This document shows positions 34,301 through 43,300 of a DNA stretch of 64,000 bases, one piece after another. The DNA is from Treponemataceae bacterium (lineage in GTDB: Bacteria; Spirochaetota; Spirochaetia; Treponematales; Rectinemataceae): the NCBI GenBank assembly GCA_963678065.2, contig CAXXVZ010000005.1, positions 736,001 to 800,000 on the forward strand, read 5' to 3'. The stretch's first letter is position 1. Every line of letters begins with the position of its first letter. Made by a program: the position numbers.

Positions 34301-37300
34301 GGCCGAAGAAGGAGCCGAAGGCGACTGATGAGCGTGGGCAGTGCTGTTAGCCGCTGGGCGGATTTTTTCTCCCTACCCCTTCCCTTACTCTTTCTTCATT
34401 ACTATTTCCCATACTACTTTTTCTTTTTCATATCGTTTTAATTCTTCCTCACTAATGCTCACTACATTCCAATCAGTTCCAAACAATTCAATAATCTGTT
34501 CTTTCTCAAAAAACCTCTTATTCTCTCCATTGTTTTCATAATAATTTCTCTCTATCTCTCTTCCTTTCCTTGATCCATGATTCACATCATTGATCGAATT
34601 CACTCTACAAAAGAAATATCCTCCATGTTTCAAAACCCTATAAATATCTTTGAGTACTTTTTTTGTTGTTGCCCAATCAAAATAATGGATGGATAAATCT
34701 GCAAGTACCGCATAGGTATAATTATTTGAAAATGGTAATCCATCCCTCATATCAAATAGTCGTGTTTCTACTCCAGGAAATGTATGTTTTATACATTCAA
34801 TTGCAGCAGAAGAATAATCACACGCTATGAGAGAGAAGCCTCTTTCCAGCAGATACTTTGTATTATTCCCAGAACCACATCCAAGATCGATAACAGGATC
34901 ATGTTTCGCAGTATTAAGAAGACCGATATATGCCTCTAGCCAATCATCATACACAACTTCAGTATCGTGTAGACTCAAAAAGTACTCATTCCATTTGTCA
35001 TGTTGCTTATCCAAAAACATCTCCTGATACTTTTTTTCTCAAAAAATCCGACTTGCGGCTAACGTTCGCCTGCCTACGACGTTGTGGCGAGCATCGGCGA
35101 GCCACAATGTGCCTGAGCGGAACGAGCGCATGCGAGTGCAGCGATGGCCGAAGAAGGAGCCGAAAGGCGACTGATGAGCGTGGGCAGTGCTGTTAGGCGC
35201 TGGGCAACAACATAATCATTTGTACAAATGAAGCTTTATTTTATGTAGTAGATTTTTGCCTAAATAATACTTCTGTATTGAGTCAGTTATATCATTTTCG
35301 CTTAATATATACTGATTAGAAAATGGCTTATCCGTAAGCAACTCTTTAAAAGTAAAATGAAAATCTTTTAATTGTTTTGTATCATCCATTAATGCCTTGT
35401 TTTGTATATTGCAAGTTTTTAGGTAATCATCCAAATTGTTGATTTCAATAGAAGCAATTTTAAATATTTTTATAAGAAATCTTTTCTCCGATTCATTAAG
35501 ACTTCTGCCTTTTAATATATCGAAAAATGATATTATTTTTCGATATATTCCTATGATTGAATCAAGACCTAATTGTATAATCTCCACTTTTTTTGCGTGG
35601 CTAGATTCTTTCCCTACCAGCAATATTGTTAAGAAAAATCCAAATATGCAAGTAACCAGTATATTTATAACATCCATAAAGCTATAGTTAAAAAAACTAT
35701 TCGAAACTTGACCCCATTTGCTAGCTGTCACATATGCCATGACTCCAATCAAAATAACTAGAGAGACCATAATAAGAATCTTTTCCTTTCTGTTACTCAT
35801 TTTATTCTGCTCGTTTTATATAACTTAAGACTTCTTCTATCAGTAACGGATCTTCATCAGACACAAGATCAATTCTAGATAATATCTTATCACTTCCATA
35901 TCTTCTGGCCAAACCTCCAAATACTTCTTCCAAAAATGCAGTTGAATAGCCTTCCACCCCATCAAGATCTATAAGTATTTTCTCTATATTTACAGTATCC
36001 TCAAAAAGTGGAACAAGAAACGTGTCTCGAAATTCCTCCCCCGAGTATTCTCCATCTCTCGAAAATCTTGCACCCGGTGTTTGTGAAAAATCGCGAGCAA
36101 TACTAATTCGTTTCATCGCAAAACTCCTTAACAAAGTCCCAACAAATTAGCGTACCATGAAATTCAGATTCAATATTTATCACAGTATCAGTATCAACTA
36201 TATACATTCCTTTACGAGATATCACATTCAAGTTTTTTACTAATCCTTGACCTACAAGGTTTTTTATTTTTGGTAAACCTTTCCCTCTATATGGAAGTTT
36301 TGTCTCACTTCTATTTTTTTCCGAGAATGCAGATTTTATTAAGCTTGCATCATCTCCGATAAAATAATCGGGGATTTTTTTTCTAACTGTCGCAGGTATT
36401 CCTCGACCATTATCTAGTAGAGCAAATTGTATTTTTTCGCATTCCTTTTTATACAAAGCCATTAACCACCATCGTTTGCTCTTCATGCCTTCATAAGCAT
36501 GTTCTCTTACATTATTCATTGCTTCCATAATTACAGCATATGTGGCTTTAGTCATCAAGTTTCTTTCAATTTTAAATTTTTCTCTTACATAAGCTAAGAC
36601 AGCACCAGCTTCTGATGAAACAATCATATCATTTGTCCTGATTGATAATACTTCTTCAGTATCATGGTGAGTGTAAGAGCTATTTACATATTTAAAAAAC
36701 CCTGAAGATAAGAATACTTTCTTACAATAATTATCCTTTGGACAATTTCCAGATAACTTGTTTTCTTTATTATTGTGAGAGGCACTATCCATACGTGACA
36801 ACAAATATAAAACAGAATCAGGTGTTATTCTTTCAATATTTAAAAGATTCGCGTATGTTCTTCTTCCATGCCAAGCAGAACTATCTACTTTGTTCAAAAA
36901 TGATATTGTTTCTTCATAGTTTTCAATAATACTGAATACTTTAGGCGCCAGATATTCTTCTCCGACATACTTTCTGAAATTGAAAGTATAATTCTTGCCA
37001 AATCCTGTGATGTGATTTGTTTTAGTTTGTAGCTGAAAAACTGCTTTCTTTGATCTTACTGCATTGAAAGCTTTAAACTTATCACTTTTGTATAATAACT
37101 TCATTTTACCAACTTGTATGTTGTTGCCTTGCGCCTAACGTTTTGTGCCTCTGACGTGTGCGACCGCACAGGCGGACGCACATGTGCCTGAGCGGAATGA
37201 GCGCAAGCGAGTGAAGCGATGGCCGAAGAGCCCTGAAAGGGCGATGAGCAGGGGCACGGTGTTAGGCGACGTGTTGTTTTGCGTCTTTTTTGGTAAACTT

Positions 37301-40300: not shown

Positions 40301-43300
40301 AATATGTCGCCTAACGTTCGCCTGCCTACGACGTTGTGGCGAGCATCGGCGAGCCACAATGTGCCTGAATGGAACGAGCGCATGCGAGTGCAATGAAGGC
40401 CGAAGAAGGAGCCACAGGCGACTGATGAGCGTGGGCAGTGCTGTTAGGCGACGTGTTGTTTTGCGTCTCCCCTTAAAAATCTATAAATTCTTTTTATCCA
40501 TTCTCTAATCATTACGATATAAAAAATAATATAATTTATTATGCAAAAACAATGGATTAATGTTAAAGAGTACTATCCATTATACGCTTAACCGGTGAAG
40601 CATACGATAATTGTAACAATAATATTGTACTCAAATAAAGCACTTAAAAGCATCTGATAATATCGTTTTATGGTCACCCTTGCTGTCATATAACTTTTTT
40701 CAAATGTATCACTAACAACTAAAAGAGCTGATACAACAATATTATACTTTTGAGCATAAAAGAAGAATGAAGAACATTCCATTTCTAGTCCTATTAGGTC
40801 TTTATCAAATACTTCATATTTCGGTTGTGCAGTAACACAGGGGACTGATACTGTTTTTCCTTCTAGATATTTTATATTCCTTTCACGTAGTTTTCGTTTT
40901 ATTAAGTTGCTTTGTTCTGAATCTGGAAAAACGTATTCAGTATCATGTAAAAAGTTTAGGACCCCTTCCAGTGCTTGTACTTTATTTGGAATAATAAAAT
41001 CGCCAACATCTAGTGATTTTTCTATGCCAAAAGCAGATCCAAAAAAAGTAATTTTCTTGACATTCCCATCATTTAGTACTGCCATTAAATCAATCATAGA
41101 TGCAGCACCATAAACTTGGAACAATAGTAAATATTCTATACCGTTATGTTTGGCAATTACTCTTTCAAAATGACTATATTCATGAAAAACGACTGTATCA
41201 AAATTTGAAAGTATACCATCAATGAATGAATGCTTCGATGAGCCAGCAAAAAGAAAACAATCTGAAGGTAAGGTATCTCTATCAAAAAAACTAACTGACC
41301 ACTTACCCATTTTCATCTCCCAAATAGCGTTCAAAAATCAAGTTATTCTATATAGTTACTACAATATATAACATGGTAAAATATAACACATTGCGCCGTA
41401 AAGCATTTATACTGATACACATAAATTGATTTGTCGAGTATTTTCAAAAAATAATAAAAGGTCCATTCAAACGGCCAGAATGGAAAATCCTACCAGGTCC
41501 GCGCAAAACAATATGTCGCCTAACGTTTTGTGCCTCTGACGTTTTGGCCCGCATCGGCGGGCCGAAATGTGCCTGAGTGGAGTGAGCGAATGCGAGCGAA
41601 ACGATGGCCGAAGAGTCGCCAGCTTCGCTGGCGGCGATGAGCAGGGGCACGGTGTTAGGCGCTGTGCTAATTTATCTTAGTTTTTTGATCACTTCATCAT
41701 AGCAATACTCAGCATATTTTCTTGCAAATATTTTAATCATTTTTTCTCTTTTTCGATTTGTTAAATTTTTTGTTTCATCAAGTATTGATTGAGCAATTAC
41801 CATTTCATTTTCAATATCCTTTTCACATAATTGAGTACAATAATTAACTATCTGTAGAGGCTTTTTCAAAACTTCGTAATCCGCTTTGTAAAAAAGCGAG
41901 TTATTGTAACTGAAGCTTCGTTTTTGCACAGTAAAAATTACATGTGCAGTAAAAAGGGCTCTCTTTTCAGTGCAAAAGATGGACTACCCCTACAAAATCC
42001 GGTTCTGCCGGATTGCCCGGTTACGATTTCTGCAGTTCGGGAAGGATGAAGTACTGCAAAGCCTTGACGGCCGCCAGAACCACTACCCCGCACATGAGCA
42101 GGAATGATACTTTCTCAAATCCCCGTACAAATATCTGACCCGGTATGAGCCAATCCTTCAAATGCGAGTTTGCACGTTCAACCGTTGTCCTGATTGTGTA
42201 CCGCTCCTTCTGTGACGGCGAAAATGGTTCCCGTTCCGTCCCACGACGCGTATTCCGATCAATCAGCGGAACACGCCCACGTCCCTGGATATAGGTCGCG
42301 ATGGGATCCGCATCGTATGCAGCGTCCATGACTGAATACAGATGTCGGACCTTTTTCTCTGTTATCTTTTCCAGAGGAATCGCTACTTGCGAATCATGAA
42401 CATTGGCGCCGGTTACGACTGCTGAAATAGGGAATCCTGTGTCGCTGACATCAAGGTGCAACTTGTATCCTTTCCATGTTTCCCTATTCCCCTGGCTGTT
42501 CTTCTTGCATCCCCATGCACAGTCTTTGGATAGTTCTGACAAGGATTTCCTGACGCTTTGGCCGACTTGCTTTTCTATCTGTGTCGGCTCCTTCACAGGC
42601 CGAACTTCTCCTTTTCGGGGACGACCTCGTTTCCGTTGCGGTGTCACGGAAGAAACAGCTTCACGTTTGGCAGGTACAGGTTTTTCTCGTGCTCGTATCT
42701 CCGTCGCATCCCGATTTATGTGTCCGACGATATGGCCGTCATGACAATCCTTCACCATGGTATTCAAAGTCTGAATCAGCGGAGTCTTTTTTGAAAACTC
42801 CGCGTAGCGACGCGAAAAGGTCGCAGAGCTTGGAACGGAGGTGAAGCCGCATATCCTCCGCAGATTCGGATCGTTGATCAGCCTGTTCCTAAGGTCCGTG
42901 ACTGTCGCTATGTGGAATACCGTTCGGGCGAAAAACGCCCGCATGATCGGTTCGTTCCGATGTGGAGGACGGCCAGTCCGTGCACATGGTGATGTAATCC
43001 GTGGCTGAGCATCTTCAATGACTCTGAGCAGGGCGATAAAAAAGCGATGCTCGTCGGTGAGATATTCTTCGAAACATCGCTGGATATCGTAGGAAATCGG
43101 CAAAAGTATTTGCGCTCCGCCCAGTATTTCTGGTATGGTTTTCATCAGCGGGGGCTCCTCCTGGTGACGTTTGTGTTGCAACATCATCATACAGGTTCTG
43201 TCCCCGCTTTTCATTAAAATTCGTTCATCTCATGACTTTTGAAAGAGCCTCTGTATTTTAGTTTTTTTCTTCTCTTGTCTTCTTTCTATTAATATAGAAC

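Follow-up and report, generated by a model that had tools for sequence, protein, structure and literature searches.

A cassette array with nested integron cassettes

We analysed a 64,000-nucleotide stretch (hereafter the window) of the 5.27-Mb genome of a Treponemataceae bacterium, in which window position 1 corresponds to position 736,001 of contig C5. The window includes part of an array of one-gene units between palindromic repeats, with 178 repeat matches on C5. A tyrosine recombinase is encoded at one end of the array, on the same strand (C5:931946-932416), and is the sole PF00589 match in or beside it. This protein scores 197 bits against TIGR02249, below the cut-off of 265, whereas the integrase encoded on contig C3 passes with 450 bits, and the alignment reveals that it lacks the IntI-specific insertion near patch III. 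The C5 array resembles an integron in having a tyrosine recombinase adjacent to its cassettes, but that recombinase is not an IntI; the IntI of this genome is encoded on C3. Duplicated units occur at distant positions of the C5 array.

Within the window, array repeats (C5-type recombination sites) are located at 41518-41661, 40309-40449 and 37133-37272 on the minus strand, as are all features described below for the window. They lie upstream of, between and downstream of two neighbouring cassettes, which we refer to as carriers B and A. A two-mismatch match is also present outside the carriers, at 60275-60293 on the plus strand.

Carrier A (37261-40315, contig 776315-773261) is one cassette of the non-IntI array, with its own paired arms. 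Its 5' arm of about 24 bp (40291-40315), which pairs with the 3' arm, is followed by a leader (40223-40290) alignable with other carriers and with the DNA before an integrase-less array on C3, and then by an attI-type site (40195-40222) that consists of an imperfect palindrome, three bases and the crossover triplet (40197-40195). A canonical integron cassette, hereafter the passenger, is nested at this site and occupies 37398-40197, including an intron-split attC. An earlier note had described it as a single gene, g04066; the passenger is real but contains two ORFs. The first (39813-40142) encodes 109 aa of DUF6864 (PF21732, E 4e-9), and the second (39440-39823) encodes at most 127 aa with no family above the cut-off and a hydrophobic stretch visible only as a weak DUF308 match.

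The inner attC of carrier A consists of a left part (39413-39426) with the R'' box and the start of L'', and a right part (37391-37493) with the stem, the L' and R' boxes and a crossover triplet at 37397. Between them is a 1919-bp group II intron (37494-39412) with a reverse transcriptase/maturase ORF (37569-38858; TIGR04416, over the cut-off). A copy that shares 94.7% identity with this intron interrupts attC at the same point in the canonical array on C3. All five intron 5' ends in the genome follow a canonical attC, the nested one included. The passenger starts at 40197, and its core pairs at 8/8 positions with the R'' box at 39419-39426; attC resumes at 37493, after which the carrier continues for 137 bp to its own arm. 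These coordinates bear out the earlier description of a complete attC split by a group II intron (39412-37494), with the carrier resuming to its own repeat. The start of the carrier tail (37261-37397, with the 3' arm at 37261-37285) may represent the right half of the empty site, and its first seven bases are common to a second locus, L008, described below. In four of 23 listed sequencing runs the passenger has almost no read cover, and none of 15 of the 28 joints skips it.

Carrier B (40443-41524, contig 777524-776443) has the same arms and is located directly upstream of carrier A. Its attI-type site (41399-41426) scores 14.8 bits over 25 upstream bases and has lost the crossover triplet, the decayed GTT noticed previously. 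The passenger ORF (40588-41316) encodes 242 aa from the ATG and belongs to the PNP_UDP_1 phosphorylase family (E 4e-15), and its attC is reduced to a collapsed remnant (40580-40601) with the L'' and L' boxes side by side. Neither leader includes a sigma-70 match directed at the passenger; the region has 15 sites versus 9.9 +/- 3.6 in shuffles, and its promoter signal does not exceed that of shuffles.

The carriers form a distinct family

A cassette family with the same terminal repeats had been proposed for the C5 array, and the count supports it: the 23-base start sequence occurs exactly five times genome-wide, as does the 23-base end, all in this array. The five carriers begin at C5:878973, 855640, 840053 (a duplicate of 855640), 777524 and 776315; four of them are distinct, and all have common, paired 24-bp terminal arms. 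The AT-rich motif originally described is found four times in the genome, each time inside a carrier, and an extended site pattern (at most two mismatches) identifies six places, namely the five carriers and C3:2358216-2358249, before the integrase-less array. The extended pattern gave no match in 68 other genomes of the family, most of them fragmented, and its reversed control also gave none. As expected from the earlier estimate of about 100-130 bp, the crossover triplet lies 98, 98, 118, 123 (decayed) and 127 bp into the carrier. It is present where cassettes begin in three of the four distinct carriers and in L008, and is lost in carrier 777524 and in the first L008 carrier. No intI gene adjoins any carrier site, only the non-IntI recombinase being found in or beside the array. 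The family arm was not found in 400 other genomes of the class, most of them fragmented. A stretch before the integrase-less array on C3 resembles a decayed arm (13/25 matches), a likeness that a rough estimate attributes to chance.

Contamination of the genome is 6.7% and arrays are hard to assemble, so we considered that canonical cassettes might lie between two short array units, or that the assembly might have joined two arrays. This explanation has almost no probability in our estimate and is already close to refuted: both ends of a carrier belong to one private complementary arm pair without an array repeat inside, carrier B is spanned by a single contig of another study (X6, window 40425-41527), and the arms are repeated independently in L008 and in 29 metagenome units.

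Passengers resemble canonical integron cassettes

Canonical start hairpins had been reported in the carriers, and those at 878846 (13.1 bits) and 855542 (15.4 bits) are the top two among 98 distinct units. The attC remnants described in 878973 (20.5 bits) and 777524 (11.6 bits) were recovered, together with a further one in 855640 (13.4 bits); among the carriers of this genome other than carrier A, attC is present only as remnants. The start core and the R'' box at the end pair at 8/8 positions in carrier A, L008 and L022:609, at 7/8 in 878973 and L032, and at 6/8 or fewer in 855640, L036 and L017. The 66-base attC of L008 folds on both strands with paired R and L boxes (z below -3.2). The right part of the carrier A attC matches the C3 attC profile (E 6e-10) and folds with z -4.35, this attC being judged from its two halves. 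Together, the cores, start hairpins and attC or remnants support the identification of passengers as canonical cassettes. The proposed stages of decay hold insofar as whole and eroded attC are both present, but they order different passengers and are not the series of a single cassette.

At least two canonical marks are found in three of the four distinct carriers, compared with one weak mark in 1 of 94 other units. Among 15 multi-member arm families, only the carrier family includes four unrelated payloads. By blastn, no passenger is shared at the DNA level with the C3 arrays, the only matches being the intron and multi-copy elements of 1.3-2.4 kb that we took as IS from their size and copy number. 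When 20 x 153 ORFs were compared by blastp, the only matches were one of 26% to the carrier B passenger and an identical segment of 71 aa from a shared element. Relatives of a DUF1706 passenger occur in 19 of 250 genomes of the order, with an intact canonical cassette at 1 of 13 loci examined (L188, 74%); for the TIR and phosphorylase passengers no relatives were found in these 250 genomes.

The internal site is of the attI type

To score the site, we built a matrix from 12 attI of other genomes, located 130-169 bp behind intI in reverse integrons, in 8 of which the first cassette is closed by a perfect R'' box. With this matrix, whose members were chosen by the carrier's own spacing, C3:2358247, the host attI at C3:98313 and C3:866928 rank 1-3 of 103,004 triplets, and the carrier sites rank 4 (carrier A), 18 and 22. 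Because they rank beside three canonical sites, we consider the carrier sites to be attI-type. The carriers score 5.0-11.6 bits, whereas none of 1560 triplets in the remaining cassettes of the array exceeds 4.7, and fall below 11 of the 12 true sites, which score 16.6-34.5 bits leave-one-out. A matrix of all 29 sites lowers the carrier ranks to 19, 41 and 122. A matrix built from 19 spirochaete attI selected without regard to the carrier spacing does not pick the carriers: those of this genome and of L008 lie close to background, at -3.4 to -9.5 bits.

These low scores for a true attI raise the question of whether an AT-rich regulatory leader has been used by IntI as an attG-like secondary site through chance likeness, given that IntI inserts cassettes at numerous genomic sites whose consensus spans just 3 bases (10.1101/2022.09.11.507474). 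We think this very unlikely. The layout and spacing of the carrier site equal those of the 12 intI-linked attI, and in none of the 94 other units does a canonical start or half an attC exceed the threshold. Moreover, the same sequence precedes the first cassette of the integrase-less canonical array on C3, where the site at C3:2358247 ranks highest in the genome; this likeness had been noted (at C3:2358231) with an extent of about 40 bases, but covers about 75-100 bp. The earlier reservation that the site is only loosely like attI appears too cautious in view of the 12-site ranks and the intI-linked layout. The carrier site is a putative substrate of IntI, for which the different passengers at one junction, described below, provide indirect support. 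The leader is far closer to the integrase-less C3 array (local scores 50-73.5) than to the host IntI-linked attI (30), so the cognate enzyme may be one other than the resident IntI.

Different passengers at a single junction

An exact scan of GTDB for the site returned two stretches, L008 and L007. L007 was rejected as a carrier: it has no arms, cassette start or integrase in 600 bases and scores 20 bits versus 40-51 for carriers, as expected by chance. L008, on an independent contig, is identical to carrier A at 114/121 positions up to the crossover and then continues into a different passenger with a complete 66-base attC, followed by the same 7-base right flank as in carrier A. The tails of the two align weakly (score 55 versus 39.7 +/- 7.0 in shuffles, 2% of which reach 55). 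A contig from run X11 matches window 40195-40349 with six differences, and its other 116 letters are unaligned, so that it parts from carrier A at the crossover. L036 and L032 likewise have a common leader up to the same point and different passengers beyond it, with two canonical cassettes in tandem in L032. The same nesting is seen at L022:609, in a different arm family; of 37 units of other arm families, three had one mark, and on reading only L022:609 held up. Arrays of relatives are short. No empty carrier was found in the array, in GTDB or among 15 of 28 read joints from four runs.

An alternative is that the cassette-making process of the non-IntI array repeatedly copies DNA or RNA between reused arms, sometimes taking an attI with its first cassette, in which case the carrier site is a passive leftover. 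Arms of the same family surround 33 payloads without mutual homology, most of which (25 of the 29 metagenome members) have no attI or attC marks, so the arms are loaded by another route too, and at least three attI-like leader types (in this genome, in L036/L032 and in L022:609) require several captures in any case. As an account of the nesting, we nevertheless find repeated capture improbable. The leaders of carrier A and L008 are 94% identical, including the arm, and their passengers differ from the crossover on; both continue past the inner attC with the same 7-mer, which starts none of 58 canonical cassettes, whereas a captured second cassette would usually begin with a core and hairpin (15/17 in C3).

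A model for the carriers

Taken as a whole, the data are probably best explained by a captured attI that IntI reloads in place. An ancestor of the carrier family would have acquired, from a reverse-integron platform, a stretch of about 100 bp with attI and without intI, and IntI, acting in trans, would then have inserted cassettes several times by attI x attC recombination. Exchange of carrier halves, through attI x attI or homologous recombination, may have occurred as well. Once the inner attC was deleted or split by an intron, IntI could presumably no longer excise the passenger, which would travel only with the outer arms; from sequence, the array's own non-IntI recombinase is predicted to move the carriers. 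In this view, a carrier would work as a mini-integron that lacks an integrase and is packaged in a cassette belonging to a second system.

A stronger version, which we regard as speculative and rather unlikely, is that selection maintains the arm family as a vehicle dedicated to import, IntI having loaded all 33 unrelated payloads before attI and attC eroded. If true, this would let cassettes pass from the global integron pool into a parallel system and would offer, for this system, a working answer to the origin of new gene cassettes, stated as unknown in PMC4889954.

The earlier idea that one cassette system feeds the other is borne out as nesting at an attI-type site, but not as general feeding; with only 4 of 98 distinct units involved, it is a minor route. 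This coverage, and enzyme roles predicted from sequence, limit the weight of the finding. Canonical cassettes are nevertheless seen turning into cassettes of a second, non-IntI system, in whole and eroded examples, with a single base as the candidate point of exchange. One attI per integron is given in PMC3607928; here attI sites are carried along as cargo, and an integron is thus not restricted to a single docking site. Callers that recognize cassettes by attC alone will mis-split such arrays.

Comparison with known systems

We found no published account of a second recombinase system whose cassettes contain an attI with further cassettes nested at it, although Table S1 of PMC12901181 may list full-attI arrays. 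The attI of reverse-type integrons (Treponema denticola type), as described in PMC3607928 and 10.1101/2020.05.09.085589, is alike in layout and crossover triplet; in these integrons, too, a complementary R'' box and a canonical attC close the cassettes, with intI and cassettes on one strand, as in the host integron. The carrier site differs in lacking intI, in occurring in five copies in one genome, each inside a cassette of another array, and in a sequence subtype distinct from the 19 collected spirochaete attI.

Mobile integrons in Tn402 and Tn7 have their platform carried by another mobile unit. CALIN (PMC4889954) are similar in that their attC cassettes have no integrase beside them and are accessible to IntI in trans. 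Compared with both, a carrier is a cassette of 0.8-1.4 kb, not a transposon, without an integrase and with one or two passengers. Fused cassettes with a truncated attC (PMC8876359) also illustrate how attC loss fixes a gene to its neighbour, but the fusion partner of the passengers is the enclosing cassette of another system. Cassettes at attG are integrated away from the integron platform, and attG, as presented in 10.1101/2022.09.11.507474, share only a short core and otherwise differ from attI; the carrier site, in contrast, resembles attI beyond the core and forms a conserved block of the attI type that has served several passengers.

The closest known counterparts are delta-attI cassettes, which have an attI sequence within a cassette array, away from intI, and whose delta-attI is a demonstrated IntI1 substrate. 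Those cassettes belong to a single IntI system, and the place of attC downstream of the ORF is taken by a partial attI. In the carriers, which are not of the delta-attI type, the attI precedes the passenger, which retains an attC of its own or a remnant of one, and the outer unit has the arms and repeats of a second, non-IntI recombinase.

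Two cassette systems in one genome

The window covers C5:736001-800000 of a genome with two cassette systems. The array on contig C5 is built on a repeat of ~140 bp with 178 matches, all in one array on the minus strand; a 393-aa tyrosine recombinase, encoded on that strand, stands at its head. This recombinase falls below the cut-off of the integron-integrase model (197 bits vs 265), and the insertion specific to integron integrases (IntI) is absent from it. Most units have their own pair of complementary terminal arms, which match at 17 or more of 24 positions in 97 of the 116 units of at least 200 bp. 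On contig C3, an IntI (96956-98140) passes the same model at 450 bits and has a canonical array behind it; another such array (2358.2-2370.6 kb) is without IntI. A 132-bp unit lacking an ORF recurs in dozens of copies across the C5 array, with two to four of them frequently in a row (for example, window 33152-33285, 58465-58596 and 59564-59695). C5 units starting at 920592, 895530, 893359, 884376, 865931, 847059 and 817601 close with a short arm whose pairing with the core departs from that in other units, and may represent a third cassette type.

Carrier cassettes with nested canonical cassettes

An earlier note described one C5 cassette family with common terminal repeats, here called carriers, in which an internal site motif precedes four different passengers resembling canonical cassettes; a survey of the genome upholds this description. 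Each family arm is present in five copies, which belong to four distinct units and a duplicate of one of them. All four occurrences of the site motif lie in carrier units; a search tolerating two mismatches also picks up the one remaining carrier and the beginning of the C3 array that lacks an integrase. Three rankings of the 98 distinct C5 units, made with C3-derived matrices for canonical cassette starts and attC halves, each had carriers in the top two places. At fixed thresholds, at least two canonical marks were present in three of the four carriers, and one weak mark in one of the 94 other units. Of the host array's 15 multi-member arm families, the carriers alone bring together four unrelated payloads, and a single further family has two. 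A multi-copy insertion element breaks up the repeat that follows the duplicate carrier (C5:839090-839230).

Carrier A (window 40315-37261, minus strand) comprises arm, leader (the stretch from the 5' arm to the site), site, passenger, split attC, tail and second arm. The passenger, with two ORFs, begins at 40197, and its start core is complementary to the R'' box at 8/8 positions. Its inner attC is interrupted by a 1919-bp group II intron, followed by a 137-bp tail and the second arm, confirming that the carrier resumes after an intron-split attC, as had been proposed. In carrier B (window 41524-40443, minus strand) the site has lost the crossover triplet, the gene is of a phosphorylase family and the attC has collapsed. 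Carriers are directly adjacent here (window 40443-41524 and 37261-40315) and in contig L008, and one unit apart in L013, seemingly more often than five copies among 178 would suggest. Passenger products include a TIR-domain protein, a RelA/SpoT-domain protein, and a DUF6864 and hydrophobic pair (C5:877759-878781; L008:1853-2878; window 39440-40142), types that are often tied to phage defence.

Each of the five group II introns in the genome (window 37494-39412; C3:118121, 121079, 125593 and 849865) starts behind a canonical attC at a similar position, within the L'' region and on the cassette strand, and none starts behind a C5 array repeat. The nested copy also shares 94.7% identity with a C3-array copy, so the intron treats the carrier's inner site as canonical. 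Group IIC-attC introns insert on the strand opposite to the cassette; these cassette-strand introns may be another attC-targeting type.

The internal site is attI-type

As a comparison set, IntI loci were gathered from other genomes (100 unique). An imperfect 22-bp palindrome lies within 90 bp behind the intI stop in 35 of the 100 unique reverse-integron loci, vs 0.32 in shuffles; it occurs in the host (C3:98150-98180) and in L039-L151. In 12 loci a second copy follows 130-169 bp downstream, then three bases and the crossover triplet, which is the spacing of the carriers; a thirteenth, L054, was excluded, its triplet not being at that spacing. A perfect R'' box closes the first cassette in 8 of these 12. 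The palindrome may be an IntI binding module, and provides a usable attI finder.

A matrix of these 12 sites, to which the host genome contributed nothing, was used to score 103,004 triplets. First place went to the beginning of the integrase-less array on C3, second to the host attI (C3:98313) and third to a further platform (C3:866928), with no IntI found adjoining; carrier A was fourth and two other carriers 18th and 22nd, although the training sites had been picked by the carriers' own spacing. Carrier sites scored 5-12 bits, vs 17-35 for 11 of the 12 true attI, and 19 spirochaete attI picked without the spacing rule did not recover the carriers over the last 20 bases. Weighing these ranks against the low scores and the failure of the spirochaete set, we conclude from sequence that the carrier site is attI-type and belongs in lineage with the integrase-less C3 array rather than with the resident IntI platform, which firms up the loose attI likeness first noted. 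A chance secondary site would leave the homology to a real array start unexplained and is very unlikely. An element encoding a 328-aa non-IntI tyrosine recombinase occurs in three copies (C3:866928 and 854380, minus strand; 2358874, plus strand), placed cassette-like directly behind an attI-type site or attC.

Apparent reuse of the site and a model for nesting

L008 is a 3.1-kb contig with two tandem carriers. It is filed under a Nanoarchaeota bin, carries C5-type array repeats and ends at an insertion; the archaeal assignment is probably wrong, and array-type repeats in archaeal bins should be treated with care. One L008 carrier agrees with carrier A at 114/121 positions as far as the crossover, continues with a different pair of genes and a complete attC, both strands of which fold well, and then has the seven bases of carrier A's tail. 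This 7-mer begins none of 58 canonical cassettes, consistent with a right half that stays constant in the empty site. Past it the two tails align weakly, with a score reached by 2% of shuffles. A contig assembled from a further sequencing run matches window 40195-40349 and diverges from the window exactly at the crossover. Recombination of attI with attI is shown for IntI1 in the accessible part of PMC4792948; half-swapping by this route would explain near-identical leaders with diverged tails. The carrier site was apparently reused.

In metagenomes, the family arm was found at 30 loci (29 distinct units), 27 of the 29 with a different leader containing a strong hairpin. Canonical marks were present in four (L036, L032, L017 and, weakly, L027) and absent from 25. 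L036 and L032 have a common leader as far as the crossover, and L032 contains a tandem of two canonical cassettes. No homologous pair was found among 33 payloads of the arm family. Repeated passive capture would account for there being several leader types and so many payloads without marks, yet it leaves the shared right flank unexplained, and we regard it as improbable. Nesting arose more than once, since L022:609, which belongs to another arm family, also contains an attI-like site, a core complementary to an R'' box at 8/8 positions and a decayed attC. A DUF1706 passenger has a 74% relative in an intact canonical cassette, at one of 13 loci. Several arm families and hosts share a pair of G+C-rich hairpins located immediately inward of the 5' and 3' arms (L009-L038, L022, L179; C5:913207 and 860985).

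We favor, as the likely history, capture of an attI by the carrier. A piece of integron platform including attI would once have been packed between the arms; IntI acting in trans would have loaded this attI several times; loss of the inner attC would then fix the passenger, which would travel with the carrier, moved by the second recombinase. Of the proposal that one cassette system feeds the other, the nesting stands, at an attI-type and apparently reused site, but the route is a minor one in this array.

Comparison with known systems

No nested case of the carrier type was found in the literature covered, in which subscription journals are thinly represented, and the accessible portions of PMC2945992, PMC3518468 and 10.1101/2022.02.06.479319 held nothing further on cassette nesting. 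Among the closest comparisons, as far as their available text goes, are attG sites (10.1101/2022.09.11.507474), the reverse integrons of Treponema (PMC3607928, 10.1101/2020.05.09.085589), CALIN (PMC4889954) and fused cassettes (PMC8876359). Closest in print are delta-attI cassettes (PMC12901181), in which a partial attI, functional there, takes the place of attC within one IntI system. Nested carriers appear as a variation within integron biology, a predicted route serving a small share of the C5 array.
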